A DNA stretch of 64,000 bases from Myxococcota bacterium (GTDB lineage: Bacteria > Myxococcota_A > UBA796 > GCA-2862545): positions 8,182,762-8,246,761 of the forward strand of contig OZ245034.1 in assembly GCA_965224055.1 (NCBI GenBank), written 5' to 3'. Under the pieces are notes generated by a model that did not search any database, was not told where the DNA came from, and saw nothing but the letters and a program-made list of their open reading frames with translations. Position 1 is the first letter of the stretch. Every line of letters begins with the position of its first letter. Of the stretch, positions 23,193 to 42,182 are shown piece by piece. The position numbers and the translations under genes were made by a program.

Positions 23193-24767
23193 ATGCTGTG
23201 GCTCGCCCTGCTCGGATGCCCCGATCCGGCCGACTCCGATGGACCGGATGTCGTCGATGCGCCCGTGCGGGTCGAGGTGGAGCCGCTCACCCCCTGTCAT
23301 GACGCGACGCCCGGCTTCGACGCCTGGGAACCCGGAGGCGACTGGGACACCCAGTACATCGAGGACAACGCCCGCTACCTGTACACGGGCGGGGGGCTCG
23401 CCGTGGCGGACTTCGACCAGGACGGGTGGCTCGACGTCTTCCTGCCGGGGGCCACGCGGGCGCAGTTGTTCTGGGGCACGCCGGACGGATTCGAGGACGA
23501 TGCAGCTCGCGGAGGGGCCAACGAGGCGCTGCTGGCCACCTTCGAGCGCGGGGTGGGGGCCAGCGTGCTGGACTTCGACGCCGACGGCGACCTCGACCTG
23601 TACCACACGCGTCTTTCGCGCCCGAACGCCCTGTTGATCAATGAATCCGGGGTGTTCTCGGACCATGCGCCGCTGTGGGGCCTGGACGACGGGCGTCAGA
23701 GCATCTCGAGCAGCTGGGCCGATCTGGATGGGGACACCGATCTCGACCTGTTCGTGGCGAACTTCGGCAACCAGGGCACCGACCGCGCCACGGCCAACGG
23801 GTTGTTCGAAGCCCAGCCCGGCGCTTTCGTCGAGCGTACGGCCGAGCTCCCCGCCGACTTCACCGAAGCGTTCACGTTCACGGGGGGCTTCGTCGACCTC
23901 GATGGAGACCGGCTTCCCGAGCTGTACGGCGTGAACGACTTCGGCTGGAAGTTCCCCAACCAGCTGCTCTGGAACACCGGGAGCACCTTCACGGCAGACG
24001 GCAACGCGTCCGGGCTGGACGTGGTGATGGAGGGCATGGGCCTCGGGATCAACGACCTGAACGGCGATGGGGTCCCCGACCTGTTGATGAGCAGCTGGGA
24101 CGACCTGTTCCTGATGCAGTCCGTGCAGACCGCCGATGGCGTGGTGTGGGCGGACACTGCGGATGCCGTGGGGATCGGGCCCGACGTCGAGACCGATCGG
24201 GTCATCGCCTGGGGAGCCGATCTACAGGACCTGGACAACGACATGGACCTCGATGCGCTGGTGGTCAACGGCTACCTGCGCGTGTCCGAGGACTGGCCGC
24301 TGCCCGCACCCGAGGAGCAGCCCGAGTCGGTGTTCGTCAACGAGGGCGGGGTCTTCTCGCAGCAGGCCACCCAATGGGGTCTGACCGACACGGGGTTCTC
24401 GCGGGGCTTCGTGTTGGCCGACCTCAACGGCGATGGGGCGTTGGACCTCGTCCGCCGGGCGCTGAAGGGCAATGCGCTCCTGCACCTGGGGCGCTGCACC
24501 GGCAATGCAGTGATCGTCGAGCTGGAGCAGCCCGGCCTGAACCGGGACGCCATCGGGGCGGTGATCGACGTGGATGCCGGCGGAACGACGCAGCGCCGCT
24601 GGATGCTCTCGGGCACGACCAACTTCGCGAGTTCGGGGCCCCTGGAGGTCCACGTGGGAGTCGCGGATGCCACGGACGCCACGATCACGGTGACCTGGCC
24701 GGACGGCAGCGTTCACACCGTCGAGGTTCCGACCCACCATCGAGTGCAGATCGAGCGGGTGAAGTGA
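23193..24767 (+). CDS. FG-GAP / ASPIC-UnbV-like secreted repeat protein
   Basis: Lipoprotein-like N-terminus (LLGCPD). Repeated DxDxDG Ca-binding FG-GAP units (DFDQDGWLDVF, DFDADGDLDLY, DLDGDTDLDLF, DLNGDGVPDLL, DLNGDGALDLV). C-terminal UnbV-like segment. Confidence 0.75.
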   Translation: MLWLALLGCPDPADSDGPDVVDAPVRVEVEPLTPCHDATPGFDAWEPGGDWDTQYIEDNARYLYTGGGLAVADFDQDGWLDVFLPGATRAQLFWGTPDGFEDDAARGGANEALLATFERGVGASVLDFDADGDLDLYHTRLSRPNALLINESGVFSDHAPLWGLDDGRQSISSSWADLDGDTDLDLFVANFGNQGTDRATANGLFEAQPGAFVERTAELPADFTEAFTFTGGFVDLDGDRLPELYGVNDFGWKFPNQLLWNTGSTFTADGNASGLDVVMEGMGLGINDLNGDGVPDLLMSSWDDLFLMQSVQTADGVVWADTADAVGIGPDVETDRVIAWGADLQDLDNDMDLDALVVNGYLRVSEDWPLPAPEEQPESVFVNEGGVFSQQATQWGLTDTGFSRGFVLADLNGDGALDLVRRALKGNALLHLGRCTGNAVIVELEQPGLNRDAIGAVIDVDAGGTTQRRWMLSGTTNFASSGPLEVHVGVADATDATITVTWPDGSVHTVEVPTHHRVQIERVK

Positions 24768-25366
24768 TGATCGGAGTCGTGTGGATGGGCCTGATGAGCG
24801 GTGCGGTCGCGAAACCGCCGGTGGACGTGGTGCTGATCGACGCCGTGCGCACGGTGCAGCCCCGCTACGTCGAGGGGCCGTCGGAGACCTGTCGGATCGA
24901 GACGATCCTGGTGGCCGGGAGTCCGCGGCGGGTGTCCGTCACCGGATGCTCCTGGGCGCGGGCGGTCTCGGTGTTCGAGGCTCTCGACGGCTGGGTGTGG
25001 TCGGTCGATGGAGAGACCGAGCCGCTGGTGAGGCCTGCCAAGACGCGGGTGCGCGTCGACTTCCGGGCCGCTGCAGGATGGACCGGACAGGGCGCGGATC
25101 CACCGGGCGACCCCGTGACGTTCTTCGCGGAGGACGGCAGAACGCTGGTCTGGAGCAGCGACGAAATGCACAGCGTCGGGACGGATGCCAACCTCGACCC
25201 GCCCGCACTCGAGGGACGCTGCACGTTCACGGTCGGGTCGTCCGGCCTGGTCGCCGATGAGCCATGCCCGGCTGCGATCGAGGACTTCTCGCGGATCTGG
25301 TTCGAGCTCGCTCGACTGGAGGATGTCCAGCGTTGGACGGTCTTCGCAGGCGATGCCGGGCGGTAG
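24767..25366 (+). CDS. Hypothetical secreted protein
   Basis: Start ATG overlaps the upstream stop by 1 nt (TGATG). N-terminal hydrophobic signal. High GC3. Confidence 0.5.
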   Translation: MIGVVWMGLMSGAVAKPPVDVVLIDAVRTVQPRYVEGPSETCRIETILVAGSPRRVSVTGCSWARAVSVFEALDGWVWSVDGETEPLVRPAKTRVRVDFRAAAGWTGQGADPPGDPVTFFAEDGRTLVWSSDEMHSVGTDANLDPPALEGRCTFTVGSSGLVADEPCPAAIEDFSRIWFELARLEDVQRWTVFAGDAGR

Positions 25367-25467: not shown

Positions 25468-27531
25468 ATGACGATGTGGTTCGCGGCCATCAGTATGGGA
25501 TTGTCGGGAGGCGCCGAAGCCACGGAGCCGTCGGGGCCGGTCTATCCACCCCACGAGCGGCTGGAGGCCCTGTGCGAGGTGCGCGGCTCGGGGGATGCGC
25601 GGACGGTGACGTCGGTCGCGTCCCGCCCGGAACTGCCGTGTCCCGAGGCGTTCCAGCGAGAGGCGGGTCGGGTCCGGGTCGAGCCGTCCGACGGCGCGGT
25701 GTGGGTGCATTTCACCCCGAACGAGGTCGATGACGGGCTGTTGCCCGTGGTCCGCACCACCCTGTGGGACCGAAGTCCCAGCGGGCATGTCGGCGGACTG
25801 GGGCTGACAGTCTGGGCGGGCCGACGCCTGGTCGAGCCAGCGATCACGCCGTTGAGCCACGACCTGCTGAAGATCGTGTTGCGTGGACTCCCACCGCTGC
25901 CGACACCCGAGTCGGGGGAGGTCTTCGAGTGCACCCTGCTGTCGGGCACCGAGCGGCCCTTCTCTGCGAGTGTCGACCCTCGTCAGGGCTGCGACCCCGA
26001 CCTCGAGCAGGCACTCACGCCGGTGCTCAACATCGAGTCACCCCGATTCGGGGAGAGCCGAGACCGTCTCGCCATTGACATTGTCGTCGGGAGCCCGGCG
26101 GATGCCCAGTTGCTCGGCACGGTCTCGGTCGGCTCACCCGGGGAGGTGGGCCCTCCAGAGCGAAAGCTGGCCGAGGATGTCGTTCGTGTCGTGTCGGTGG
26201 GATCCGTTGCGAATACGCAAAGCGATTCCGTTGGCGTGTACGCCCTGCCTGTGATGCACAGACCCCGGTGCACGCTGCGCACGAGGATGGGAGTGCACTT
26301 CAGCCGCTTCCGAGACGGGCAGGGCGGCATCTGGAGAGCATCCGTCGGGCCCCGCTGTCCAGCGGACGTCGCTCGGGGAATCGCCCGAGAAGCCGTTCGG
26401 CCGCGGACCGGCCCGTGGTGGTTCGACAACGCGAGCCGCAACGACCCCGGTCAGCGGAGCGTCTCCTACGCCGAGGAGCAGCAGGTGGAGGTTCCCCTCG
26501 AGACCCTCGCAGTCCCCGAGGGCACACCGGCCGACCAGAGCATCGAGGGGCCCTGTCGGCTCGTGGGGGTCCTGGAGAACGTGGATGGGGTGGTGCGAGA
26601 GCGCTTCTGGAGCGAAGGTGGGCCGTGCTCCGCCTGGGTGGAGGACGCGCAGGGAGACGTGTGGTTCAACGCCATCCGCGAGAACCCTCCGCTGGAGTCG
26701 GCATCGTGTACCGTGTCCGGGACGGCTGGACCGCTGGAGAGCCCCGGTGGGGTGGACCGTTCCACGTGTCCAGCGCGGTTTCGGCCGTGGGTGTCGGCCC
26801 TGCAGCTCATCGGTCCCGAGAACACGCCGGTCGAGATGCGTCTGACGCTCGCTCCGGGTGTGGTCGATCAGCCGCCGCGGGTGTGGGCCGCGATGCCGGA
26901 CGCACCGCAGGAGAAGAAGGCGTTCCTGGTGACTCCTGTGGACGTGCCTGCGACGGAGCTGGCCGGCGCGCACTGCCAGGTGGAGTCCTGGGTCGGGAGC
27001 TGGCGGGAATCCCCGCAGATGATCACGGTGTCCGGCGAAGACTGCCGCTGGGAGCATGCTCGGGCCCTGCATGCCTCGGTGTCGGACTGGGTCTACACGA
27101 CCCGGGAGCGGACCCTCCGCAACCTGCTCGCTTCGCGAGATCGCGTGTGGGTTCCCGGGACGGATGAGACGAAGACCTCGGCACCGATCGCGTCAGATGC
27201 CGACTGCGTGATCCGGTCCAGGGCGGGTCTGCCGGGCGTCTTTCTCGACAACCCGCCCCTGCACTTCGTGGAGCACGGAGACTGCCGGATGGGGCAGCGG
27301 CTCGCCACGATTCCCGACATGCAGTGTCGACTTCGCCTGACGGTGGACGGCCGGACGTATCGGGCCGAGCCCTCCTCCTGTCCCCCGGCGCAGGTTCGAG
27401 AGCTCTCCGAGGTCCTGCAGGGGGGCGGGGCGCAGTATGCAATCGGTCGGGCGCTGGAGCGGGACGAGCCCGGGCCGTTCACGGTCGAGTGGGTGTTCGA
27501 CGGGCGCGTCGACGGGGTCAGCGACAGGTGA
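25468..27531 (+). CDS. Hypothetical secreted Cys-containing protein
   Basis: Internal ATG followed by a signal peptide (MTMWFAAISMGLSGGAEA). 687 aa, no recognised domains. Confidence 0.5.
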   Translation: MTMWFAAISMGLSGGAEATEPSGPVYPPHERLEALCEVRGSGDARTVTSVASRPELPCPEAFQREAGRVRVEPSDGAVWVHFTPNEVDDGLLPVVRTTLWDRSPSGHVGGLGLTVWAGRRLVEPAITPLSHDLLKIVLRGLPPLPTPESGEVFECTLLSGTERPFSASVDPRQGCDPDLEQALTPVLNIESPRFGESRDRLAIDIVVGSPADAQLLGTVSVGSPGEVGPPERKLAEDVVRVVSVGSVANTQSDSVGVYALPVMHRPRCTLRTRMGVHFSRFRDGQGGIWRASVGPRCPADVARGIAREAVRPRTGPWWFDNASRNDPGQRSVSYAEEQQVEVPLETLAVPEGTPADQSIEGPCRLVGVLENVDGVVRERFWSEGGPCSAWVEDAQGDVWFNAIRENPPLESASCTVSGTAGPLESPGGVDRSTCPARFRPWVSALQLIGPENTPVEMRLTLAPGVVDQPPRVWAAMPDAPQEKKAFLVTPVDVPATELAGAHCQVESWVGSWRESPQMITVSGEDCRWEHARALHASVSDWVYTTRERTLRNLLASRDRVWVPGTDETKTSAPIASDADCVIRSRAGLPGVFLDNPPLHFVEHGDCRMGQRLATIPDMQCRLRLTVDGRTYRAEPSSCPPAQVRELSEVLQGGGAQYAIGRALERDEPGPFTVEWVFDGRVDGVSDR

Positions 27532-28483
27532 TGGTCTGCGCGAGGATCTGGTCGGGCTGGCCGTCCGGCAGGTCGTTGCCGGTTCCGAAGTCCAGGGACT
27601 CCACGCAGCTCGCCGGCGAGGCCTCGTCGCAGTCGTAGGTCGCGATCAGCACCAGCACGTCGTTCTCGAGGATGCGTCGCTCGGCGATGGCCCAGCGCTT
27701 CTCCTCCCAGGTCCACGACTCCCGACTGAAGGGCTCGTCGTTCACGAAGGTCTCGAGCAGCGTCGGACGGCCGTGCTCGTCGCGGGCCCAGCGTTCCTCA
27801 CGGACGTCGTCCACCTCCCCGTCGGCGCCGATCTGAGTGAGCTTTCGGCTCAGCAGGCGGTCGGAGTTCTCCCACCAGGACTGCTCGGTTTCGGTGCGGG
27901 CCTCGGATCCGACCGTCGAGACGGTGCGATTCAGGAGGCGGTCCCGCGAATCGTACGCGAAGGTCGACTCCCGCGTCTGGTCGGGCTCTGCGCTGGGGTC
28001 GGCCAGCGCGCCCAGCTCGTCCCAGCGCTGCTCGACCTCGGCGGTCCGGCGACCCCGGCGTTCCCGGCCGTTCGGATAGGTCGGCTCGAAGGTGAAGATC
28101 TCGTTGAAGAAGGGCTCGGAGGGGGCCGCGCTGTCGACGATCAGGGTGTCTTGCTCGAGGACGTCGCCGTACCGGTCGCAGGTGCGCTCCACGTCCACGA
28201 TCCGGTCTGCACCGGACGCTGCCGCACCCTCGTCGACCGAGGATTCCAGGACGGCGCAGTCGTCCTCCCAGGTGAGGTCGATCTCGAAGGCGCGGGCATC
28301 GGCGTCGATGGTCCGGCGCACGATGCGGCCCTCGCGGTCGGTGGTCTCGACCCGCAGCTCGTCTTCGACGCCGTCGGCATCGAGGTCGATCGACGTGGTG
28401 ATCGTGCAGTCGGACAGTGCGGGCTCGCGAACGGAGCTGCAGGCCGTGGCCGCCAGGAGCAGGAGCAGGGCAGGGGACTTCAT
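27518..28483 (-). CDS. Cys-rich lipoprotein, paralog 1 of a tandem triplicated family (unknown function)
   Basis: Lipobox LLAATAC. Conserved family motifs WEDDC, TCDRYGD, FxPTYPN, RDEHGR and C-terminal C..C...TC. Confidence 0.65.
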   Translation of the reverse strand: MKSPALLLLLAATACSSVREPALSDCTITTSIDLDADGVEDELRVETTDREGRIVRRTIDADARAFEIDLTWEDDCAVLESSVDEGAAASGADRIVDVERTCDRYGDVLEQDTLIVDSAAPSEPFFNEIFTFEPTYPNGRERRGRRTAEVEQRWDELGALADPSAEPDQTRESTFAYDSRDRLLNRTVSTVGSEARTETEQSWWENSDRLLSRKLTQIGADGEVDDVREERWARDEHGRPTLLETFVNDEPFSRESWTWEEKRWAIAERRILENDVLVLIATYDCDEASPASCVESLDFGTGNDLPDGQPDQILAQTITCR

Positions 28484-28491
28484 GCCGGCTC

Positions 28492-29418
28492 CTATCCCGG
28501 GCAGTCGTACTCGACGGTGCGACGGGTCTCGGGGCTCCCGTCCGGCGGGTTGATGCCCCGGCCGATGTCGATGTCGATTTCGCAGGTCGTGAGGGGTCCA
28601 GGCTCACAGGTCCAGCTCTCGGTCTCGTGGAGCATGCCGTCCTGGGTGGTCCGTCGGGAGATCGGGGCCCAGCGGTCGGCTTCCCAGGTGGTGATAGTCT
28701 CGGTGAGATCGACGGACTGCTCGGTCTCGACCTCCACGCGCCCGTGCCGGTCGCGCTGCCACTCCCATTCCTCGGCGGCGGTGTTGCCGCCGAACGACAC
28801 CGTGTGGGTGGTGGGCAGCGACGTGTCTCGCCACCAGCTCCAGGCAAGCGTCGTGGTGAAGCCGTCGAGCCGTCGCGATTCGTGAACGAGCCGGTTCCGT
28901 CGGTCGTATTCGTAGTCCCGGTACTCGGTGCTGCCCGGGTCGGGCCAACCGTATGGAGGTCCGTACACCTCCTGGCCGCCAATGGGGCCGAGCACCTCGT
29001 TCTCGCTCTCGACCCGATCGCGCTGGCGGCGCGCCTCGGGATCGTCGGGGTACGTCGGGAAGTACTGCGTGAACGAGCGTTGCGCCACGGCGTCGTTCAC
29101 GAGGGTCTCGACGTCCACGACGCCGGGATCTCCGAACCGATCGCAGCGCCGTACCACGGTCTGGATCTCGGTGGGACCGCCGTCGTCCGTCGTTGCCACC
29201 TCCAGGACGGGGCAGTCGCCGTCCCAGGTGGTCGTCACCTCAGAATCCCGGGTCAGGTCCGCGCTGTCGAAGGCGGTCCTCCGAAAGGTCTCGCGGCCCG
29301 CTGGATGCCCGGGCAGGCTGCCGATCTTCAGTCGCAGTCGGATTCGAGGATGCGGAGCTGATCGGCGAACCCGTCGATGGCCTCGCCGGTGGGGCTCTGA
29401 TCGACCGCCACCTCGCAC
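28492..29418 (-). CDS. Cys-rich protein, paralog 2 of the triplicated family (5' end uncertain; no signal peptide or in-frame canonical start after the upstream gene stop)
   Basis: Shares WDGDC, RCDRFGD, FPTYPD and RDRHGR motifs with paralogs 1 and 3. The ORF's N-terminal ~30 codons overlap paralog 3 and look non-coding. Confidence 0.45.
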   Translation of the reverse strand: MRGGGRSEPHRRGHRRVRRSAPHPRIRLRLKIGSLPGHPAGRETFRRTAFDSADLTRDSEVTTTWDGDCPVLEVATTDDGGPTEIQTVVRRCDRFGDPGVVDVETLVNDAVAQRSFTQYFPTYPDDPEARRQRDRVESENEVLGPIGGQEVYGPPYGWPDPGSTEYRDYEYDRRNRLVHESRRLDGFTTTLAWSWWRDTSLPTTHTVSFGGNTAAEEWEWQRDRHGRVEVETEQSVDLTETITTWEADRWAPISRRTTQDGMLHETESWTCEPGPLTTCEIDIDIGRGINPPDGSPETRRTVEYDCPG

Positions 29419-30350
29419 CGTTCCCAGGGAGCGCTGCTGCTGCCGTCGCAGAACCAGTGTTCGGCCTGCGTGACGGTGCCGTCGAAGGCGAAGGTGCGGT
29501 CGATCGGCGCGGAGCGTGCGGGTTCCCAGCGGGTCTCGATGCGCACGGTCGGACCGTCGATCGACTCGTCCTGTTCGACCAGAACGCGGTCGTGTTCGTC
29601 GCGCACGAGGGTCTCGCGGGCCAGGACCTCGGTCTCGTCGCCGTTCCAGCGCGTGCGGATCGTGGTCCGATCGGCGTACTCGGTGGTGGTGATGGTCGTT
29701 CCGCCGAGGCTGTCTTCACGGACGAATCGCACCCTCCGGCCCTGGTCGTCGAGGATCCAGGTGTCGTCGAAGGTGCGCGCCACCTCGTCCGGCTCGGCGT
29801 CCCACCCCGGCCATTCTCCGCTGATCTCGGTGAGCTGTCCGGTGCGCGGCGTGTTCGCATCGGGGTAGCGGGGCGTCACCTCGGAGAACTCGATGTAGTC
29901 GAGCTCGCCGTCGGATTGGTACGACGCGTGGTCCAGCTGGAGGAGGTCGCCGAAGCGGTCGCAGGTCTGCAGGGTCTCTTCGCGCAACACGTCCTGCGGA
30001 CCGTCGGTCGACCAGACGCGCTCCTCGGTCCGGCAGTCGTCCTCCCAGCGGATCTCGGCTCGCGAGCCGCTCGAGTGGGTGCTGAGCACGAGGCGACCGT
30101 CGCTGTCGTACGTCTCCTCGAGCTCCTCGTCGATCTCCCCGTCCAGATCCCGGTCGAAGCGGGTGCGAATCGAGCGACGGTCGTCCCCGTCGGTGCCGAA
30201 TTGGGGCCCTTCACCGCCGATTCGCGAGGGGAGACCTAAGCGAGATAGTGCCAACCGAGGGCGGAACGACCGAGGGCGGAGGCCGAGAATCGGCCGGAGG
30301 TAAAGGAATCGTGCACCCGGCGCGCTCCTGTGCGGGAGGTTCGGGTGCAT
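29328..30350 (-). CDS. Cys-rich protein, paralog 3 of the triplicated family (possibly 5'-disrupted)
   Basis: WEDDC, TCDRFGD, YPDAN, RDEHDR and C-terminal ESDCD motifs. The first ~45 codons have poor codon usage. A lipoprotein signal peptide is encoded in another frame just upstream. Confidence 0.5.
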   Translation of the reverse strand: MHPNLPHRSAPGARFLYLRPILGLRPRSFRPRLALSRLGLPSRIGGEGPQFGTDGDDRRSIRTRFDRDLDGEIDEELEETYDSDGRLVLSTHSSGSRAEIRWEDDCRTEERVWSTDGPQDVLREETLQTCDRFGDLLQLDHASYQSDGELDYIEFSEVTPRYPDANTPRTGQLTEISGEWPGWDAEPDEVARTFDDTWILDDQGRRVRFVREDSLGGTTITTTEYADRTTIRTRWNGDETEVLARETLVRDEHDRVLVEQDESIDGPTVRIETRWEPARSAPIDRTFAFDGTVTQAEHWFCDGSSSAPWERCEVAVDQSPTGEAIDGFADQLRILESDCD

Positions 30351-30399
30351 CGACCGCTGGGGTGGGCGTGCATCCGATGAGCAGGTGGATCCAGAGCAT
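30211..30399 (-). pseudogene. Orphan lipoprotein signal-peptide ORF (MLWIHLLIGCTPT...) out of frame with paralog 3; candidate frameshift remnant
   Basis: A good signal plus lipobox is followed by about 130 nt of low coding potential containing a direct repeat CCGAGGGCGGA x2 (plus strand about 30253-30285) before the paralog 3 frame becomes codon-biased. Confidence 0.3.
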
Positions 30400-30499
30400 G
30401 TTCCTCGCCTCGTGGCGTTCGACGACTACCATCAGGGTAGCGGATGATCGTGGGTGTGGTGGAGCAGGGCCGGCGTTAACGCTCTGCAGGAGGTGATCC

Positions 30500-31300
30500 G
30501 TGCGCTCCAGCCTGTTCCTGGTCCCGGTGTTGTCACTGCTGATCCTGTCCGACGCCCTCGCAGCCGACGACGCGGACGAACCCGCGGATCCGCCCGTCCC
30601 CGCCGGGACGAAAGAGGATCCGGTCCCCATGTCGTTCGAAGAGCTGACCCTCACGCGCGACCGCTCTCCGTCCTACCCGATGAAGCCCTCGGGTCCCTCG
30701 GCGTGCATCGCGACGCTCCTGGTCGACGAGAACGGGCGGATCACGATCGAGGACGTCGCGGCAGACGAAGGCAGCAAGTGCCAGAAACCCATCCGAGCCG
30801 CGATCGAAGAGGCCGTGGCGCGCTGGGGATTCGAGTCTCCGATGCGCGATGGCGACAAGGTCTACGCCCGCGTGCCGGTGCCGTTCACGTTCGACGGAGC
30901 GTCGGGTGCATTGCTGAAGAGCGAGAGCGACGAGGTGCTCGGCAAGCTGTTCCGCTCGTACGAAGCGGAGTCCGGAGAGGGGTCCGGGGCCTGCACGCTG
31001 TCGATGGAGGTCTTCGCCGACGGAGACGTCACGAATCGCCGCACCGACGACCGCTACAACTGCCTGGCCCTGCCCGCCGGCAAGCCCCCGAAGAAGCTGT
31101 ACAAGAAGCTGAAGGGCGACGCCGAGACCTGCATGGTGTCGCTGGACGCGGTCGAACGCGAGGCCACGAACATCACGTCGGAATGTGGCGATCTGGACGC
31201 GTTCGTGCCCGACCTGCTGAAGAGCTGGTCGTTCAACGGAACGAAGGACGGACGGCCTTACCGTCTCGCCCTTCGATTCAGCACGTCTCGCGACGAGTAG
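30500..31300 (+). CDS. Secreted protein with TonB C-terminal-like domain
   Basis: Signal peptide. The segment SPSYPMKPSGPSACIATLLVDENGRITIEDVAADEGSKCQKPIRAAIEEAVARWGFESP resembles the TonB-C fold (YP...G.V.V...VD.NG.V..V....S.....AA..AV..W.F.P). Confidence 0.55.
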   Translation: MRSSLFLVPVLSLLILSDALAADDADEPADPPVPAGTKEDPVPMSFEELTLTRDRSPSYPMKPSGPSACIATLLVDENGRITIEDVAADEGSKCQKPIRAAIEEAVARWGFESPMRDGDKVYARVPVPFTFDGASGALLKSESDEVLGKLFRSYEAESGEGSGACTLSMEVFADGDVTNRRTDDRYNCLALPAGKPPKKLYKKLKGDAETCMVSLDAVEREATNITSECGDLDAFVPDLLKSWSFNGTKDGRPYRLALRFSTSRDE

Positions 31301-31322: not shown

Positions 31323-32678
31323 TCAGCCCGGCGGCAGCGGAGGCGGACCGCCACTCCCGAGCTCGGATGCGATCTCGGGGACGTCGGCGGGCGCCTTCCA
31401 CCCGTCCCAGCCGTTCTGCCAGACGTGGTGCTTGCCATCGGGGTCGGCGCTGACGGCCTGAACCACCTGCTCGAGCGTCATCTCGCCCGACCCGCCGGAC
31501 CCGTTGTAGTGGTACTTCGCGCCAGCGCCCGGAAGCGGGGGAGGTGCAGCGGCGGGAGGGGGAACCTGCCCGGCGATCTCGGGGACGTCCTTCCAGGACT
31601 TCCAGCCCGACCAGCCGGCCTGCCAGACGTTGTGGGCACCATCGCGATCGGCGCTGATCGCCGCGACGATCTGCTGGAGCGACTTCTCGCCCTGACCCGC
31701 GGGGCCCGCGTAGTGGTAGCTGGCGGCCTGGGGCGGAGGAGGCGGCGCGGGTGGACCCCCGCCCTGCATGCCCTGGTTGGGGTTGAACTGGCCTCCGCCT
31801 CCGTTCATGGCGCGGCCCATCTGGTTGCCCATCATGTTGCCCATGCCGAATCCGACGCCCATGCCGATGCCGGCGCCCCCGATCCCGGGGTTCTTGGCGG
31901 CGGTCTCGATGGAGTCGGCGGCCTTCATCTGGGTGTAGGCGTTGAGGTCGCCCAGCATCCCCATCTTGGAGCGGTCGTCCAGCGCCTTCTCGACGGCCTC
32001 GGGCAGGCTGATGTTCTCGATCACGAAGTCGGTGATGGAGATGCCGTACGCATCGCTCATCTTGCCGCTCATGCTGGACTTCAGCGACTCGCCGAACTCC
32101 ATGTAGGACGCTGCGAGGTCGAGGATCGGGATCTTGCTGGCCCCGACCTCGGATGCGAAGGCGGACTGCAGCTTCTTCTTGAGCTGACCGTTGATCTCGT
32201 CGGTGGTGAACAGCCCGTCTGTGCCGACGACCTGGCGCAGGAACTCTGCGGGGTCGGTGATGCGGTAGCTGTAGTTTCCGAAGGCGCGGATCCGCACGGG
32301 GCCGAACTCGGCGTCGCGCAGCATGATCGGGCGCGGGGTGCCCCAGCCGTTGTCCATGAACTGGCGCGTGGAGCAGAAGTAGATGTCGCCCTTGTAGGGG
32401 TACTGGAACTGGTACGCGATGCTCTTGAAGAACGACATGATCGGCGTGTTCTTCGTGTCGAGCGTGTACGTTCCGGGCCCGAAGACGTCGGACAGCTGGC
32501 CCTCGGCGACGAAGACGGCAGCCTGGCCTTCGCGTACGACGAGCTTGCTGTTGTCGGTGATGGCCTGGTTGAACACGGGGAATCGCCAGACGAGCGTGTC
32601 GTTGGTGTCGTCCAGCCACTCGACCACGTCGAGGAACTGCGCTCCAGCGTGTTGCTTCAGCATGTTCCACAGACCCAT
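31323..32678 (-). CDS. SPFH/band-7 domain protein with two C-terminal DUF4339 (GYF-like) repeats
   Basis: Start ATG with RBS GGAGGTG. Gly/Met-rich linker. Duplicated segment YHY(A/N)G...(L/M)(S/T)LEQ(I/V)V.A(I/V)SAD(R/P)DG.H.VWQ.GW.GWK...VPEI. Confidence 0.8.
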   Translation of the reverse strand: MGLWNMLKQHAGAQFLDVVEWLDDTNDTLVWRFPVFNQAITDNSKLVVREGQAAVFVAEGQLSDVFGPGTYTLDTKNTPIMSFFKSIAYQFQYPYKGDIYFCSTRQFMDNGWGTPRPIMLRDAEFGPVRIRAFGNYSYRITDPAEFLRQVVGTDGLFTTDEINGQLKKKLQSAFASEVGASKIPILDLAASYMEFGESLKSSMSGKMSDAYGISITDFVIENISLPEAVEKALDDRSKMGMLGDLNAYTQMKAADSIETAAKNPGIGGAGIGMGVGFGMGNMMGNQMGRAMNGGGGQFNPNQGMQGGGPPAPPPPPQAASYHYAGPAGQGEKSLQQIVAAISADRDGAHNVWQAGWSGWKSWKDVPEIAGQVPPPAAAPPPLPGAGAKYHYNGSGGSGEMTLEQVVQAVSADPDGKHHVWQNGWDGWKAPADVPEIASELGSGGPPPLPPG

Positions 32679-32809
32679 TGTCACCTCCGTGCCACGCCAT
32701 TCTCTGATGGGGTGGCCAACCCGTTCGTGCATCCGCACTGTTCACCGTACTGTGCACACGCGTCGGGGCTTCGGAAAGGGTGCCCGCCACGCGAAACGCA
32801 GATTAACGG

Positions 32810-33421: not shown

Positions 33422-34381
33422 TCACCAGATGTCGATCGACCGCGATCGCTCGTCTTCTTCCCGGCCACTCGCGGTGGCGCGGTACATCCCGCCCGAGTTG
33501 AAGGGCATCACGACCGTGCCGGACGGGTCGATGGCGATCAGACCGCCCGATCCGCCCAGCTCGCGGACCTCTTCGAGCACCTGGGTCGCTGCGGCGGCGA
33601 GGGACAGGCCCGACAGCTCGACCAGATCGCTGACCCGATGGGATGCGGCCACCCGGATGAACGGCTCGCCGTGACCGGTCGCTGCGACGGCACAGGTGCG
33701 GTTCCACGCCCAGGTCCCCGCCCCGATCACCGGGGTGTCGCCCACGCGTCCGGCCCGCTTGTTGGCCATCCCGCCCGTGCTGTTCCCGGCGGCGAGGGTG
33801 CCCTGCAGGTCGAGAGCGACGGCGCCCACGGTCCCCACCGCTCCGTCTTCCGAGGGGGTGTCCTGGTCGACGGTGTCATGATCGAGGACGACGTCGCCCG
33901 TGCGTCGCACCCGCTCGAGCTGGGCGACCCGATGGGGGGTGACGAAGAACGCCGGCTCCACCTGCTCCAGACCCTGATCCCGTGCCCAGGCATCGGCCCC
34001 TGGACCCGCCAGGAAGACGTGCAGCCCGTCGTCGAGCACGGCGCGGGCGAGTCGGACGGGGTTGCGGGTGGTGCGGCACGCGGCAACGGCACCGGCACGG
34101 CGGTCTCCGGACATCACCGCGGCGTCGAGCTCGGCCTGACCGTGCGCGGCCAGCACGCTGCCCCGACCCGCGTTGAAGTGCGGCCACTCCTCGAGGGCCA
34201 CGATGGTCTCGGTGACGGCGTCGAGAGCGGATCCACCCCGGGTCAGCACGGCGATTCCGGCGTCGAGCGCGGCGTCCATGCCCGCGGTCGCGCGTGCGAT
34301 CTCGTCGTCGGACAGGGAGTTTCGGGCGATCAACCCCGCGCCGCCGTGCAGGGCGAGGGACCAGGTCCGGGGCGAGGTCAT
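33422..34381 (-). CDS. Isoaspartyl peptidase / L-asparaginase (Ntn-hydrolase, plant-type)
   Basis: LALHGGAG start, GRGSVL, autoproteolytic-site TVGAVALD and GTWAWNRTCAVAATGHGE motifs. Start at the internal ATG (MTSPRTW). Confidence 0.85.
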   Translation of the reverse strand: MTSPRTWSLALHGGAGLIARNSLSDDEIARATAGMDAALDAGIAVLTRGGSALDAVTETIVALEEWPHFNAGRGSVLAAHGQAELDAAVMSGDRRAGAVAACRTTRNPVRLARAVLDDGLHVFLAGPGADAWARDQGLEQVEPAFFVTPHRVAQLERVRRTGDVVLDHDTVDQDTPSEDGAVGTVGAVALDLQGTLAAGNSTGGMANKRAGRVGDTPVIGAGTWAWNRTCAVAATGHGEPFIRVAASHRVSDLVELSGLSLAAAATQVLEEVRELGGSGGLIAIDPSGTVVMPFNSGGMYRATASGREEDERSRSIDIW

Positions 34382-34414
34382 GGTGAGCCGGGATCCTGCG
34401 GTGTACGGTTCGAC

Positions 34415-36010
34415 ATGGCTGATAACCCTGCTGCCGGCGCCCTCGCGCTCCTCGGACTCGCACTGTGCAGCCCGGGTGTGTTCGCGGTCGAGGGCGACGT
34501 CGAGCCCACGTTCATCGGGGGATTCGACGGTCACGACCCGTTCGAGCTCGTGCGGGTCGAGGATCCCGACCACCCTGATGCGATCGTGCGCTCCAGCACG
34601 GGTTCGGTGCTGCTCGGCCCTCCGCAGCCCGGTGTGGCGTGGCGACGCGAGCCCATCGCCGAGATCGATCAAGACGACCAGGAGACCGGGGCGCCGGGGT
34701 TGTCTCCGGCATTCGAGCTGCTCGAGGTCACCAATGCCGACCTGTGGCACGCCGAAGGCCACCGGGGTGCGGGCGTGCGCATCGCGGTGTTCGATCCGGG
34801 CTGGAACACGGCGAGTGCCGAAGAGCTGGGTGCGTACACCACCCACGACTGCGTGGCGACCCAGAGCTGTGCGGTGCCGTTCGACCCCTTGCGACAGGAC
34901 GGCAAGCACGGCGTGGGGTGTGCCGAGGTGATCCGCGATCTGGCTCCAGAAGCCGAGCTGTTCCTGGTTCGAACCGGCTCGTTCACGTCCTTCGAGAACG
35001 GGGTCGACTGGGCGATCCGCAACGACATCGACATCATCAGCATGTCGGTGAGCTTCTACAACGACAGCTTCCACGATGGGACGGGGCCGTTCGACCCGCT
35101 GCTGCACCGCCTCGAAGCTCACGACATCCTGCTGGTGACGAGTGCCGGGAACACCTCCCGGGAACACTGGCAGGGGCGATTCACGGACGCGGACTTCGAT
35201 GGCCGGATGGACTTCGACGGCTCGAATCGCCTGCTGTTCGACATGAACCAGGGGGATCGGCGTCGGGTGAACCTGAACTGGGATCAGCACTTCGACTGCG
35301 GAGCGACCGATCTCGACCTGGTCGTCACCGACCTCCAGGGCGACATCCTGGCGCGCTCCGAAGACGTGCAGTCCCGCGATGCGGATCGCTGCGAGCCCGT
35401 CGAAGCCCTGCGGTTTCCGGCGCTGGTGCCCGGACGGTACGCACTGGAGGTCCACCACGCGGGGGGCGCGCTGGGCGACCTCGATCTGGCGCTGCTCGCC
35501 CGAGGGGGCGCGTTCGTGGAGCCCGTGCGTGCGCACAGTGTCACCGTTCCGGCCGACCACCCCCTCTCGGTCGCGGTGGGGGCGGTGCGGGCAGACCTCT
35601 ACCAGACCTCGCCCACCGAGTCGTTCTCGAGCTGGGGCCCCAACAATGCCGGGCATGGCAAGCCGGACATCGCGGGTCCGGATCGGTTGAGCACCCTCAC
35701 GTACGGGGCCCAGGGCTTCTCGGGGACCAGCGCCTCGACGCCCGCTGTGGCCGGGTTGATCGCGATCCGGATGTCGGCCGCGGACGAGACCCCACGCCAG
35801 GCGTTCGAGTGGCTGCAGGTCCACGCGCTGTCCGACGTTCCCGGGTGGTCTCTCGATCCTGCTCTGGGCGCCGGTCGCGCGCGTCTCCCCGACCCGTACC
35901 CCACGGCCCGCGAGGCGATGGGATGCGGCGAACGACCTCTGTGGATGTCGCTGTGCCTTCCCCTGTTCCTGGTGCCCGCGTGGCGACGGCGGGTACGATG
36001 CGGTCGATGA
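34415..36010 (+). CDS. Subtilisin-like serine protease (S8) with MYXO-CTERM-like C-terminal sorting tag
   Basis: Catalytic triad context D (AVFDPGW), H (HGVGCAEV) and S (GTSASTPAVAG). C-terminus AMGCGERPLWMSLCLPLFLVPAWRRR. Start at the internal ATG with signal peptide. Confidence 0.85.
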   Translation: MADNPAAGALALLGLALCSPGVFAVEGDVEPTFIGGFDGHDPFELVRVEDPDHPDAIVRSSTGSVLLGPPQPGVAWRREPIAEIDQDDQETGAPGLSPAFELLEVTNADLWHAEGHRGAGVRIAVFDPGWNTASAEELGAYTTHDCVATQSCAVPFDPLRQDGKHGVGCAEVIRDLAPEAELFLVRTGSFTSFENGVDWAIRNDIDIISMSVSFYNDSFHDGTGPFDPLLHRLEAHDILLVTSAGNTSREHWQGRFTDADFDGRMDFDGSNRLLFDMNQGDRRRVNLNWDQHFDCGATDLDLVVTDLQGDILARSEDVQSRDADRCEPVEALRFPALVPGRYALEVHHAGGALGDLDLALLARGGAFVEPVRAHSVTVPADHPLSVAVGAVRADLYQTSPTESFSSWGPNNAGHGKPDIAGPDRLSTLTYGAQGFSGTSASTPAVAGLIAIRMSAADETPRQAFEWLQVHALSDVPGWSLDPALGAGRARLPDPYPTAREAMGCGERPLWMSLCLPLFLVPAWRRRVRCGR

Positions 36011-39745: not shown

Positions 39746-40510
39746 TCAGCGCGGGACCAGTTGAGCGACCCACTTGAGCGACTTCGCGGTGAGGGGGTGG
39801 CCGGCGAAGTCCTCTGCTCGGAACACCACCCGGTAGCCAGCATCCTGGATCAGCTGTTCCAGCTCCTCGCGCTCGAACATCCGCAGGCGCAGATGGCACT
39901 TCTCTTCGCTGCCGTCGCGATGGCGGTACGTGTAGAGCACGTGGTGGGTGCGTGAAGGCTCGTCCCACCACCCCTGCTCCCAGGTGTGCAGGGGCTGGCC
40001 GGTTCGCGGGTCCGAGAAGATCCGGTGCTCGTAGGTCCGGTCGGGATCGCGGTCGTACAGCTCCCGATCGGGAAGGTAGGCGTCGACCGCAACGCGCCCG
40101 TTCGGGCCGAGGTGATCGCGGATCCAGGTCAGGGTCTGCACGACGTCGTCGGGCCCCTTGCAGTGATGGATGGCGTTGAACGGCCACAGGATGAGCGCGT
40201 AGTCGTCCCGCGGCGTGCCCGAGGGCTGCCGGAAGTCGCCTTCCCAGAAGCGGATGCGTGCCTGGACGTTCGGGGGCTCTGCTGCGAGCTTCAGGCGCAA
40301 CCCCTCCAGCATCGTGGGCTCGAGGTCGACGCCGTCGATCCGGATGCCGGCCCGAGCGATGGGCAGCGTGAGCCGACCGGTCCCGCAGCCGAGCTCCAAC
40401 ACGGGGCCGCGGGTCTGACGCGCCAGAGCCTGGTAGTACTCGATATCCTCGGTGTGAGCGGCGTATTCGAGGTCGTACAGCGCGGGGTCGGCATACGGGT
40501 TGTCGTTCAT
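39746..40510 (-). CDS. Class I SAM-dependent methyltransferase
   Basis: Motif I VLELGCGTGRLT and downstream acidic-loop and motif II/III pattern. Start at the internal ATG (MNDNPYADP). Divergent (43-nt gap) from the ammonia-lyase pair. Confidence 0.8.
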   Translation of the reverse strand: MNDNPYADPALYDLEYAAHTEDIEYYQALARQTRGPVLELGCGTGRLTLPIARAGIRIDGVDLEPTMLEGLRLKLAAEPPNVQARIRFWEGDFRQPSGTPRDDYALILWPFNAIHHCKGPDDVVQTLTWIRDHLGPNGRVAVDAYLPDRELYDRDPDRTYEHRIFSDPRTGQPLHTWEQGWWDEPSRTHHVLYTYRHRDGSEEKCHLRLRMFEREELEQLIQDAGYRVVFRAEDFAGHPLTAKSLKWVAQLVPR

Positions 40511-40553
40511 GGCGCGATTGTACTCCCAGGGGTGGGCCGGATAGGGGTCGCGG

Positions 40554-42182
40554 ATGCAACCGCTCGAGCTCACCGGAAACGATCTGACCCTGGCCGACGT
40601 CGCGGCGGTCGCGCGGTCCCGACGGCCGGTCGCACTCGCAGCCTCGGCGCGCGAGCAGATGGCGGCCTCGCGGGCCTGGGTCGAGAGCGTGGTGTCCGGC
40701 GACGACGACATGCCCGTCTACGGCGTGAACACGGGCTACGGGTCGCTGGCGCGGGTGCGCATCGACAACCACAACATCGCTCAGCTGTCGTGGAACCTGG
40801 TGCGCAGTCACGCGGCAGGGGTGGGGCCATCGGCGTCCCCTGCGGTGGTGCGGGCGATGATGCTGTTGCGCGCGAACGCGCTGGCCAAGGGGGCGTCGGG
40901 GGTCCGTCCGGCGCTGGTCGACACCCTGTGCGCCATGCTGGAGGCCGGGGTCACGCCCATCGTCCCCGAACGGGGCAGCTGTGGATCGTCGGGCGATCTG
41001 GCGCCGCTGTCCCACCTGGGGTTGGTGGTGTTCGAGGGGCCGCGCGATGCGGCTCGGGATTCGTCCGCTCCAGACGGGTCGGTCGAGGATCGGGAGTCCG
41101 GCGAGGCGCTGTACGATGGGCGTCGCATGTCCGGGGCTGCGGCCATGCGCCAGGCCGGGATCCAGCGGCTCGTTCCGGCTCCCAAGGAGGGGCTGGGCAT
41201 GATCAACGGTGCCCAGCTCACCTGTGCGATCGCGGCCCTCGCCGCGGTCGATGCGAGTCGACTGGTGGTCGCGAGCGAGATCGCGGCGGCCATGAGCTTC
41301 GAGGCGCTCTTCGCGGTGACGCGCGCGCTCCACCCGGGTGTGCACCGGCTCCGCGCGTACGTCGGCGCCCGTCAGACGGCGGCCAACCTCCTGCGGCTCG
41401 TCGAGGGGAGCAGCCTGGTGGATGCGCTGCCAGACAAGGTGCAGGACGCGTACAGCCTGCGGTGCATGCCCCAGGTCGTCGGGGCTGCGCGGGACGGCAT
41501 CCGCTACGCGGCCGGGCAGATCGAGGTCGAGCTGAACAGCGTCACCGACAACCCCGTGGTGCTCCTGGACGTCGACGGTCCCAACAAGGCGTTCTCGGCG
41601 GGGCTGTTCCACGGCGAGCCACTGGGGATGGCGGCCGACCACCTGAAGCTGTGCGTGCTGGAGGTCGGGGCCATCTCGGAGCGACGGATCTACCGGCTCA
41701 CCACCGACAAGCTGTCGGCCCGGCTGCCTCCACTTCTGGCCGAGAAAGACGGGTTGCGGCTGGGATTGATGATGCCCCAGGTGTCGGCTGCCGCCCTGGT
41801 CGCTCAGAACCGCCAGCTGGCGTACCCGGCCTCGGCCGACAGCATCCCCACCTGCGAAGACCAGGAGGATCACGTCGCCATGAGCACCACGGCCGCGCGT
41901 CGAGCAGCCGAGGTGGTCGACAACACCCACCACATCGTGGCGATCGAGCTGTTGGCCGCCGCAAAGGGCTTGTGGTCGCGGCTCACGAAGGATCCGTCCG
42001 CGAAGCTCGGGGTCGGCACCGCTGCCGCTCTGGACGCTGTCGAGGCGGCCCTCGGGGGGCGGCGCACCTCCGAAGCACCGGCGGACGACATCGAAGCCCT
42101 GGGGCGGATCGTCCGCGACGGGAGCCTGATCGACCGCGTCCAGCAGGCCACGGGGCCGCTCCAGGGGGTCCTCGATGGCTGA
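40554..42182 (+). CDS. Aromatic/histidine ammonia-lyase family enzyme (HAL/PAL/TAL fold) with an Ser-Ser-Gly motif where HAL has the Ala-Ser-Gly MIO triad
   Basis: YGVNTGYG (catalytic Tyr region), GSCGSSGDLAPLSH (MIO triad region; SSG instead of the canonical ASG), NPVV and FHGEP segments. 542 aa. Confidence 0.85.
   Translation: MQPLELTGNDLTLADVAAVARSRRPVALAASAREQMAASRAWVESVVSGDDDMPVYGVNTGYGSLARVRIDNHNIAQLSWNLVRSHAAGVGPSASPAVVRAMMLLRANALAKGASGVRPALVDTLCAMLEAGVTPIVPERGSCGSSGDLAPLSHLGLVVFEGPRDAARDSSAPDGSVEDRESGEALYDGRRMSGAAAMRQAGIQRLVPAPKEGLGMINGAQLTCAIAALAAVDASRLVVASEIAAAMSFEALFAVTRALHPGVHRLRAYVGARQTAANLLRLVEGSSLVDALPDKVQDAYSLRCMPQVVGAARDGIRYAAGQIEVELNSVTDNPVVLLDVDGPNKAFSAGLFHGEPLGMAADHLKLCVLEVGAISERRIYRLTTDKLSARLPPLLAEKDGLRLGLMMPQVSAAALVAQNRQLAYPASADSIPTCEDQEDHVAMSTTAARRAAEVVDNTHHIVAIELLAAAKGLWSRLTKDPSAKLGVGTAAALDAVEAALGGRRTSEAPADDIEALGRIVRDGSLIDRVQQATGPLQGVLDG

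Follow-up and report, generated by a model that had tools for sequence, protein, structure and literature searches.

A probable tandem array of three anciently diverged lipoprotein paralogs with a predicted YD-hairpin fold and two broken upstream copies in a Myxococcota bacterium

Three adjacent open reading frames (ORFs) on the minus strand of a Myxococcota contig encode proteins with a common cysteine-rich skeleton, which raises the questions of whether they are true paralogs, which of them are intact, and what kind of protein they specify. The window analyzed here, the whole 64-kb stretch of DNA, contains them at the following positions:

27518..28483, minus strand: paralog 1 (para1), an intact 321-aa lipoprotein precursor (P0001)
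28492-29418, minus strand: paralog 2 (para2), a 308-aa ORF
29328-30350, minus strand: paralog 3 (para3), an ORF of 340 aa

The common skeleton reflects true paralogy. BLASTP aligned para1 with para2 at E 2e-23 (32% identity over 260 aa), para1 with para3 at E 6e-15 (27% identity), and para2 with para3 at E 5e-14 (29% identity). GC3 periodicity of 0.84-0.98 backs the reading frame of each ORF, and a family HMM run on the six-frame translation of the window matched exactly these three copies. The motifs W(E/D)(D/G)DC, (T/R)CDR(Y/F)GD, and RD(E/R)H(G/D)R, on which the original prediction had been built, were found in all three paralogs; (F/Y)P(T/R)YP(D/N) holds as P(T/R)YP(D/N), but its leading F/Y occurs in para2 only, and in the C-terminal C...(T)C...DC pair the residue before the last Cys of para1 is T, not D. 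The limits given for the locus fit the three ORFs, but the upper bound should reach 30432.

The array had been described as a triplication. The copies are indeed in tandem, but this term wrongly suggests recency, because they are equally far from each other and from the homologues of other organisms; they are anciently diverged, and the triplication is not a recent one. The sole resolved pair in a neighbor-joining tree was para1 with P0002 (100% bootstrap); the rest did not resolve, so that the tree places the origin of para2 and para3 neither before nor after the split from the lineage of the closest relative L001, a syntenic metagenome contig with one copy. This pairing and 57% identity to P0002 mark para1 as orthologous to the one copy present in L001. 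Values of dN/dS between the copies were 0.83-0.99. Given the GC3 bias of the genome, pS levels off near 0.5; synonymous sites are thus saturated, and the ratios say nothing on whether selection is relaxed or positive.

An intact lipoprotein signal was found in para1 only, as had been proposed:

28439..28483, minus strand: para1 signal peptide and lipobox, MKSPALLLLLAATA followed by C15, read from the sequence

The N-terminus MKSPALLLLLAATAC with this lipobox fits the lipoprotein signal rule of PROSITE PS51257, all signals being judged by eye; the para2 and para3 ORFs are devoid of such a signal. The para1 ORF begins with ATG preceded by GGAG, and its GC3 is 0.86-0.98. The protein would be exported by the lipoprotein signal and acylated on C15. 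Lys at position +2 is a reported lipoprotein retention signal in Myxococcus; since para1 has Ser at this position, its destination is probably the outer membrane.

In line with the original prediction, the 5' end is damaged in each of the two upstream copies, by truncation in para2 and by a 139-nt insertion in para3. The remaining part of para2 is:

28492..29298, minus strand: homologous part of para2, a 5'-truncated copy with homology from G41 of the 308-aa ORF

Family homology of para2 (GC3 0.80-0.92) starts about 30 nt past the para3 stop; the copy lacks its signal peptide, some 50 residues at the N-terminus, the first Cys, and strands 1 and 2. A 5' deletion would have removed these elements together with the start. 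The statement that para2 has no usable start after the para3 stop was slightly off, as a GTG exists at 29238 and serves as the annotated start in the source (P0005, 248 aa); this start yields no signal peptide, and no lipobox was found in para2.

The third copy consists of three segments:

29328..30166, minus strand: para3 body downstream of the insertion, with family frame, five Cys, and conserved motifs kept (GC3 0.84-0.94)
30167..30305, minus strand: insertion in para3, 139 nt comprising 130 nt and one direct-repeat copy
30306..30432, minus strand: ancestral 5' part of para3, now in a different frame from the body, MVVVERHEARNMLWIHLLIG followed by C21 TPTPAVDAPEPPAQERAGC40TI

The insertion length equals 1 mod 3 and hence shifts the frame. 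Excision of the 139 nt restores a 321-aa lipoprotein precursor with seven Cys, its 5' part aligns to family N-termini free of gaps, and solely after this removal does para3 show a lipobox; the signal peptide lies in another frame, as had been stated, and so does the first Cys. The GC3 signal vanishes across the insertion, and residues 1-59 of the 340-aa protein derive from out-of-frame leader plus insert. An insertion between the C40-T-I codons and the DxDxDG loop would have put the signal peptide out of frame. The insertion is flanked by the direct repeat GCACGATTC/GCTCGATTC (family D6; 8 of 9 positions matching, spacing 139), which is short and could have arisen by chance. No terminal inverted repeats were found on the insertion, blastn detected no second copy in the 64-kb window, and no exact match was present among metagenome contigs. 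Its predicted fold was unremarkable (z-score 0.08); an Rfam search over 27000-31000 gave no credible match, the sole one being mir-598, far below threshold, at 28328-28390 and thus outside the insertion.

The coding appearance of the whole para3 body and the intact signal peptide and lipobox just upstream would also be expected if the frameshift were a sequencing or assembly error and para3 really an intact lipoprotein gene. This is very improbable, as a defined 139-nt block bounded by the 8/9 direct repeat, not a homopolymer slip, has to go to regain the family register, and the single contig of 9.4 Mb suggests a finished genome.

On the time scale of the copies' divergence the 5' lesions are recent, since para2 and para3 still have open frames, the codon bias, and residues conserved in the family (consensus residues kept in non-gap columns: 41 of 57 in para1, 30 of 44 in para2, and 28 of 46 in para3). 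The same features can be read differently, with each of the three annotated genes functional (321, 248, and 340 aa) and para2 and para3 as signal-less cytoplasmic or alternatively exported variants. Their frames are open over 248-340 codons with a strong GC3 of 0.80-0.94, family-conserved residues are kept about as in para1, and both are CDSs in the source annotation, with NCBI/ENA proteins (P0003, P0005). Furthermore, the para2 stop lies 8 nt from the start of para1, a spacing that suggests an operon with translational coupling; a scan of 27200-30800 found neither a sigma-70-like promoter nor an intrinsic terminator, so that it is the gene spacing only that points to an operon. Against functional products, the five kept Cys belong to a skeleton that stands behind a lipoprotein signal in every intact member and thus presumably requires an oxidizing compartment. 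Moreover, para2 lacks strands 1 and 2 as well as the residue with which its last Cys would presumably pair, GC3 periodicity has collapsed over the first 59 residues of para3, and at 69% GC frames stay open long past inactivation. We therefore regard three functional genes as unlikely. A residual function of para2 or para3 is possible; the 340-aa and 248-aa CDSs of the source annotation probably represent pseudogene remnants without function.

The confident AlphaFold (AF2) model of para1 (pLDDT 90.9, pTM 0.81) is a 20-strand beta meander, which would curve into a soluble barrel that is closed or almost so. In a Foldseek search ranked by sequence-aware 3Di, all of the top 20 matches were Rhs, Tc-toxin, or teneurin YD shells. 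Pfam RHS_repeat scored 11.8 bits for para1 and 14.1 bits for para2 at a cut-off of 22, with no match in para3; sub-threshold matches to it occurred in 7 of 15 family members (best E 9.2e-4), and YD_repeat_2x matched 6 of 15 (best E 2.4e-4). The window copies did not reach the curated cut-off for YD/RHS repeats (PF05593, TIGR01643). Beta-hairpin repeats in a curved antiparallel sheet or shell, as typical of YD/RHS proteins, were found. According to the model, the fold of the family is not new and consists of YD/RHS-like beta hairpins throughout the mature domain. Two Bacteroidota 'porin-like' lipoproteins, 3tzg (BVU_2266) and 4ghb (BACUNI_01323), which we take to represent DUF4595 (PF15283, Pfam 'porin-like fold'), were weak fold matches; against the DUF4595 model, a single member out of 15 gave a match (E 0.023), and the window copies gave none.

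An integral outer-membrane beta-barrel porin was also considered. This reading has almost no probability and was rejected on composition, lipobox signal, and the TCR C-terminus: the signal is of the lipoprotein type, not type I; the proteins are acidic (pI about 4.2, acidic residues 20-27%; para1, pI 4.2, D+E 23%); hydrophobic residues make up 58% and 29% of the two strand faces and charged ones 22% and 38%, with neither face lipid-like; the C-terminus ...TCR or ...WTCP carries no aromatic beta-signal; and Rhs/YD proteins rank first in Foldseek.

Besides the lipobox C15, para1 has six Cys (C26, C76, C102, C285, C293, C320). The para2 and para3 ORFs have five Cys apiece; the sixth is deleted in para2, whereas that of para3 is encoded farther upstream in the other frame. 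The proposed three disulfides fit the six-Cys skeleton, which is present in para1 and in family members outside the source genome. In the para1 model, the Cys sites fall at strand ends that are neighbors in the antiparallel meander; a C26-C320 disulfide would link strand 1 to strand 20, C76-C102 would bridge hairpin 5/6, and C285-C293, two residues absent together from P0017 and P0021, would close a loop. The para1 motif D33-L-D-A-D-G-V-E-D41 fits DxDxDGxxD and probably binds calcium; 90% or more of 15 sequences share D33 and D37.

The family is very rare. As the original prediction expected of an uncharacterized Cys-rich lipoprotein family, all Pfam and NCBIfam models stayed below cut-off, and no well-characterized domain emerged from these profile searches. 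Among 1.84 billion cluster representatives, the family HMM gave 23 matches at E ≤ 1e-3 and seven at E ≤ 1e-10; a word search of a 5.8-billion-cluster set gave only two, and family-alignment scans of genome contigs and metagenome contigs found no relatives. Members outside the source genome share the lipobox and the six-Cys skeleton; the lipoboxes of distant members, L-(A/V)-G-C, are equivalent to that of para1, and the L001 ortholog shows MRAPLLLVCVLCA followed by C after start correction. A genome-wide family expansion found no support, as the 9.4-Mb source contig contributes these three proteins only among all HMM matches. Other genomes with the family have single copies.

The array is bordered by:

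30433..30499, no strand: divergent intergenic region between para3 and a TonB_C-like gene, the probable promoter region of the array
30500..31300, plus strand: divergent neighbor P0004, a secreted 266-aa TonB_C-like protein

P0004 matches Pfam TonB_C at E 3.9e-4, below cut-off, and is 54% identical to its counterpart in L001, where the adjacency is conserved. Across seven related loci, no neighbor recurred beyond the close relative L001. The convergent neighbor, gene C, has no detectable homologue and no domain; it had been considered as a toxin and was dropped.

Arrays of orphan immunity genes typically contain tandem copies that have diverged or been truncated, and the array could hence encode periplasmic 'orphan immunity' lipoproteins directed against envelope-acting polymorphic toxins. 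Diverged paralogs including degenerate copies, the lipoprotein nature with its envelope location, and the weak matches to 3tzg, 4ghb, and DUF4595 accord with this. A DUF4595-domain lipoprotein in Bacteroides fragilis was tentatively called a T6SS immunity protein (PMC11854122). However, neither the seven related loci nor the window array has an adjacent gene for a toxin, Rhs core, T6SS, CDI, or another effector, the gene is single-copy in all other genomes, and gene C offers no candidate domain or homologue. We consider an immunity role decidedly improbable. Nor was support found for the suggested diversifying turnover of surface, adhesin, or effector-like genes: the seven related loci share no recurrent context of toxins, secretion, or adhesins; a decaying tandem array alone is no pointer to such roles and represents ordinary gene birth-and-death.

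We return to the reading of an array of three anciently diverged paralogs encoding rare, acidic YD-hairpin lipoproteins of about 300 aa, with the two upstream copies broken, which we hold with moderate confidence. We would guess that para1 is a passive envelope-ligand binding or cage module, not an enzyme or toxin; the genomic context differs at every related locus, and a specific ligand has no support. A bolder and rather doubtful version is a so far unrecognized class of miniature, self-contained YD cages for a specific envelope cargo, each a lipid-anchored soluble 20-strand barrel that an N-to-C disulfide and a calcium loop would close. Its cargo might be a glycan chain, lipid, or peptide that is held or conducted, and such a cage would amount to an Rhs shell cut to its minimal closed form for non-toxin use. 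If the prediction is true, this 300-residue, disulfide-stapled, lipid-anchored barrel would be the smallest self-contained YD-repeat fold known to us, relevant to the folding of Rhs and teneurin shells and to myxobacterial envelope proteins, and a possible minimal scaffold. The family merits its own profile, since current Pfam and NCBIfam models overlook its members.

Among known systems, Borrelia OspA, a single-layer beta-sheet lipoprotein, is a fold match of lower score than the Rhs and barrel matches; it has a flat 21-strand sheet with globular ends, without YD motif or disulfide skeleton. The 'porin-like' lipoproteins 3tzg and 4ghb come from a different phylum, gave no match in a PDB profile search, and no six-Cys skeleton was seen in them. 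Rhs polymorphic toxins combine a core, an autoproteolytic motif, and a C-terminal toxin; Pfam and NCBIfam searches detected no toxin or core domain here, and the family proteins, 288-335 aa in length, end with ...(W)TC(P/R) directly after the last strand. Unlike Rhs shells, the family is without Rhs core, aspartyl autoprotease, C-terminal toxin, PAAR/VgrG, or other delivery domain, and it is lipid-anchored, with six conserved Cys and a DxDxDG loop. The best structural matches are nevertheless the Rhs/YD-repeat shells of T6SS Rhs effectors, Tc toxin BC components, and teneurins (PF05593, TIGR01643): shells of more than 700 aa and window proteins of about 300 aa and 20 strands have in common the repeated hairpin, the (Y/F/W)D..GR(L/V) turn, and a strongly curved antiparallel sheet.

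Three minus-strand ORFs in succession span positions 27518-30350 of the window, which has a GC content of ~69% throughout:

27518-28483, minus strand: para1, 321 aa
28492-29418, minus strand: para2, 308 aa counted from the longest GTG
29328-30350, minus strand: para3, 340 aa

Values of GC3 were 0.84-0.98 in the respective frames of the three ORFs, according to which all of them are coding now or were until recently; the periodicity breaks down at about 30150-30450. The translations could be aligned over their full length with invariant W..DC, CDR(Y/F)GD, P(T/R)YP, and RD.H.R motifs and three C-terminal Cys residues, and BLASTP among the copies gave E values of 2e-23, 6e-15, and 5e-14 at identities of 27-32%. 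The common motif skeleton claimed by the original prediction for these adjacent ORFs was thus confirmed computationally, and these E values together with the whole-length alignment demonstrate homology rather than compositional similarity. With the window (64 kb) translated in all six frames, a family HMM detected para1, para2, and para3 as the only copies.

Among 5.8 billion protein clusters, a word-indexed search with para1 as the query returned only para1 itself (P0001, an NCBI/ENA protein encoded on a 9,398,701-bp contig) and the metagenomic protein P0002, which is 56-57% identical to it. When 1.84 billion cluster representatives were searched exhaustively by HMMER using a profile of four sequences, 23 proteins scored E<=1e-3, of which 7 reached E<=1e-10. 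Among them were two proteins annotated in the source genome, namely P0003 (340 aa), which exact look-up identified as the 340-aa window ORF para3, and P0005, a 248-aa version of para2 starting at GTG 29238. Further good matches (P0006-P0012, P0015-P0017, P0020, P0021) comprise 288-362 aa. Common to these further matches are a lipoprotein signal (typically L-A-G-C) followed by a short linker, (P)DRxxC-T and then D...ADG..D, (Y/W)D..(G)C in the interior, CD..(G)D(P), in many cases with a T before it, a number of (Y/F)D..GR turns, and a C-terminus of the form C-x7-9-C ... DG.PD ... W(T/D)CP. P0009 originates from a Myxococcota MAG and P0007 from a MAG labelled Alphaproteobacteria; one weak relative carries the JGI name 'YD repeat-containing protein'. 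The family is very rare in public data. The predicted family expansion was not seen genome-wide, because the HMM matches checked included no protein from the 9.4-Mb source contig besides the three window proteins.

In the source annotation, para3 is a 340-aa CDS starting at ATG 30350. Another frame upstream of this ATG encodes MVVVERHEARNMLWIHLLIGC TPTPAVDAPEPPAQERAGCTI..., in which the family's (D/E)RAGCT motif comes after a lipoprotein signal, and a net +1 shift is required to pass from this leader frame into that of the para3 body. A 9-nt direct repeat (GCACGATTC / GCTCGATTC, 8/9 identical, repeat family D6), its two units exactly 139 nt apart, marks the edges of an insert at 30167-30305. 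Removal of this block fuses ...GCTI to RTRFDRDLDG... and gives a 321-aa precursor with seven Cys residues at positions 21, 40, 87, 111, 282, 293, and 320. From its first Cys through the DxDxDG loop, the restored N-terminus aligns gap-free with para1, the ortholog from the closest relative (P0002), P0007, P0017, and P0009. Since the removal restores the family register, the first 59 residues of the annotated 340-aa para3 represent out-of-frame leader plus insert; a signal peptide sitting in another frame had been predicted, and it is joined to the body in this way. An assembly error at para3 as the source of the frame break is very improbable. The insert occurs once in the window, lacks terminal inverted repeats, has an unremarkable predicted fold, and is without a match in metagenome contigs; Rfam returned no credible match for 27000-31000. 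The insert contains a perfect 12-nt direct repeat at 30254-30280 (ACCGAGGGCGGA twice, spacing 15) and an 11-nt inverted repeat (91% complementary) at 30216-30226 and 30284-30294.

Within the long para2 ORF, homology to the family sets in at G41-R (nt 29298), ~30 nt past the para3 stop; para2 lacks a signal peptide as well as the first Cys and strands 1 and 2. Past the para3 stop, GTG 29238 is the sole start codon in frame; the source annotation uses it, and para2 then reads MTTTWDGDC... without a signal. An in-frame AGC lies eight nt past the para3 stop, the same spot that the para1 ATG holds relative to the para2 stop (8 nt), and the codons ...GCG GGC CGC (A-G-R) are one transition short of an A-G-C lipobox; one may speculate that these are relics of a former start and lipobox.

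Counted over family-conserved, non-gap columns, consensus residues were kept at 30/44 positions in para2, 28/46 in para3, 41/57 in para1, and 36/55 in P0002, and both damaged copies retain strong GC3. Consensus retention and GC3 argue that constraint acted on para2 and para3 during their divergence, compared with which their inactivation is recent. With 5' lesions in both and a lipoprotein signal in para1 only, the predicted pseudogenisation of two copies probably holds. It is unlikely that both are functional as annotated; the annotated para3 (340 aa) and para2 (248 aa) are probably mis-annotated pseudogene remnants.

The metagenome contig L001 of the closest relative is syntenic with the window and shares the following genes:

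TonB_C-like gene, 54% identity
family member, 57% identity
FG-GAP/ASPIC protein gene
Ser/Thr kinase gene
AspRS gene
Recep_L protein gene

L001 contains one family gene. Its product P0002 was called with a short start (VLCAC..., L001 1195-1243), and an in-frame GTG farther upstream provides the ortholog with a lipoprotein signal, MRAPLLLVCVLCAC. Para1 and this ortholog grouped with 100% bootstrap, the remaining tree being without resolution. In the trimmed alignment, para2 and para3 showed 24-28% identity to para1 and are as distant from it as homologues from other organisms. Either the duplications are older than the split and two copies were lost in L001, or the extra copies underwent very rapid divergence. 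The NG86 values between the copies (pS ~0.5, dN/dS 0.83-0.99) are taken to reflect saturated sites under the GC3 bias of this genome and are not read as a sign of selection. No evidence was found for the adhesin or effector turnover that had been suggested.

Other family loci carry one copy each and revealed no conserved neighbours, the flanking genes being different each time. The array in the window is accompanied by these ORFs:

24731-25366, plus strand: ORF with recurring Cys...Cys pairs, apparently secreted
25471-27531, plus strand: 686-aa ORF with recurring Cys...Cys pairs, apparently secreted
30500-31300, plus strand: TonB_C-like gene, divergent, 266 aa, secreted, TonB_C E 3.9e-4 (sub-threshold)

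The two Cys-pair ORFs, convergent to the array, are located in the interval between the FG-GAP/ASPIC gene and para1 and have no counterpart in L001, so that this spot varies while the backbone around it is conserved. Together with para2 and para3 they form a lineage-specific variable spot. The 686-aa ORF has no Pfam domain, and the word search of 5.8 billion clusters returned only itself. The TonB_C-like neighbour is not conserved at family loci more distant than L001. No promoter or terminator motifs were found for the array. The para1 ATG follows the para2 stop by 8 nt, and para1 to para3 probably share a transcript that starts in the interval separating para3 from the TonB_C-like gene. An array of orphan immunity genes would agree with the tandem pattern of the copies and with a remark made tentatively in the literature about a DUF4595 lipoprotein, but no toxin is located nearby, and we consider this explanation quite unlikely.

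By its gene content the window is myxobacterial in character. It encodes Ser/Thr kinase-AAA_16-TPR genes and, at 31323-32738 (minus strand), an SPFH/Band_7_1 protein that has a linker rich in Gly and Pro and a GYF_2 domain at its C-terminus. Its identity to proteins from MAGs of Myxococcota or 'Deltaproteobacteria' is 58-68%, and these relatives were used for the taxonomic placement of the window. Tandem, overlapping aromatic amino-acid lyase genes at 40554-42182 (E 5e-162) and 42175-43695 (E 1e-123) adjoin a SAM-methyltransferase gene at 39746-40711 (minus strand); the region 39746-43695 may be part of a secondary-metabolite cluster. At 33422-36010, long ORFs overlap on opposite strands, with Asparaginase_2 in residues 488-789 only of the minus-strand ORF and Peptidase_S8 in residues 632-726 only of the plus-strand ORF. 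Each is probably real only in part, and partly spurious long opposite-strand ORFs are typical of high-GC genomes.

No Pfam or NCBIfam model matched family members at curated threshold. The only recurrent sub-threshold matches were RHS_repeat (7/15 members, best E 9.2e-4; 11.8 bits for para1 and 14.1 bits for para2 vs a cut-off of 22) and TIGR01643 YD_repeat_2x (6/15 members). Comparison of the family profile with PDB sequences placed the Rhs-family entry 8h8a on top (E 0.059), with Tse5 and teneurins lower. AlphaFold2 with a 15-sequence alignment produced a confident model (pLDDT 90.9, pTM 0.81) of 20 consecutive beta strands and no other element. An earlier model from a four-sequence alignment (pLDDT 80) served as the Foldseek query against the PDB; the first 20 matches were all YD-shell proteins (T6SS Rhs, Tc toxin BC, teneurin, SGS1; E 1.8e-7 to 7.6e-4), followed by the Bacteroides 'porin-like' structures 3tzg and 4ghb and OspA. 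A structural match covers four-fifths of a closed 19-strand barrel, which suggests that the modelled 20-strand sheet closes or nearly closes. A membrane barrel or porin is ruled out with near certainty by composition (para1 pI 4.2, D+E 23%; strand faces 58% and 29% hydrophobic, 22% and 38% charged), the lipobox, and the C-terminal TCR. We conclude that the family consists of compact, lipid-anchored, soluble YD-repeat proteins. The description as an uncharacterised Cys-rich lipoprotein family stands as far as database models at threshold are concerned, and gives way in that the family maps to the YD/RHS-repeat architecture.

Para1 contains C15 (lipobox), C26, C76, C102, C285, C293, and C320. 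Across 15 sequences C76, C102, and C320 are invariant; C285 and C293 are absent together in P0017 and P0021, and this joint loss speaks for a bond between the two. In the model, strand 1 opens with C26 and strand 20 finishes with C320, C76 stands at the start of strand 5 and C102 at the end of strand 6, and strand 18 ends at C285 and strand 19 begins at C293. Each pair being adjacent in the antiparallel meander, the predicted disulfides are C26-C320, which would close the barrel, C76-C102, and C285-C293. Residues D33-L-D-A-D-G-V-E-D41 of para1 form a DxDxDGxxD loop with D33 and D37 kept in >=90% of sequences; this loop may plausibly bind calcium.

Para1 would be exported and lipidated on C15. 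Lys at +2 is a retention signal for lipoproteins in Myxococcus; residue +2 of para1 is Ser, so sorting to the outer membrane would be expected. Our guess is that para1 serves as a passive module that binds or encloses an envelope ligand, because catalytic motifs and a conserved partner gene are lacking and a YD scaffold offers a container or binding surface. The YD/RHS repeat is a known architectural kind, and its small format found here is undescribed and new; in Rhs, Tc, and teneurin proteins, the YD scaffold serves as a container or binding surface.
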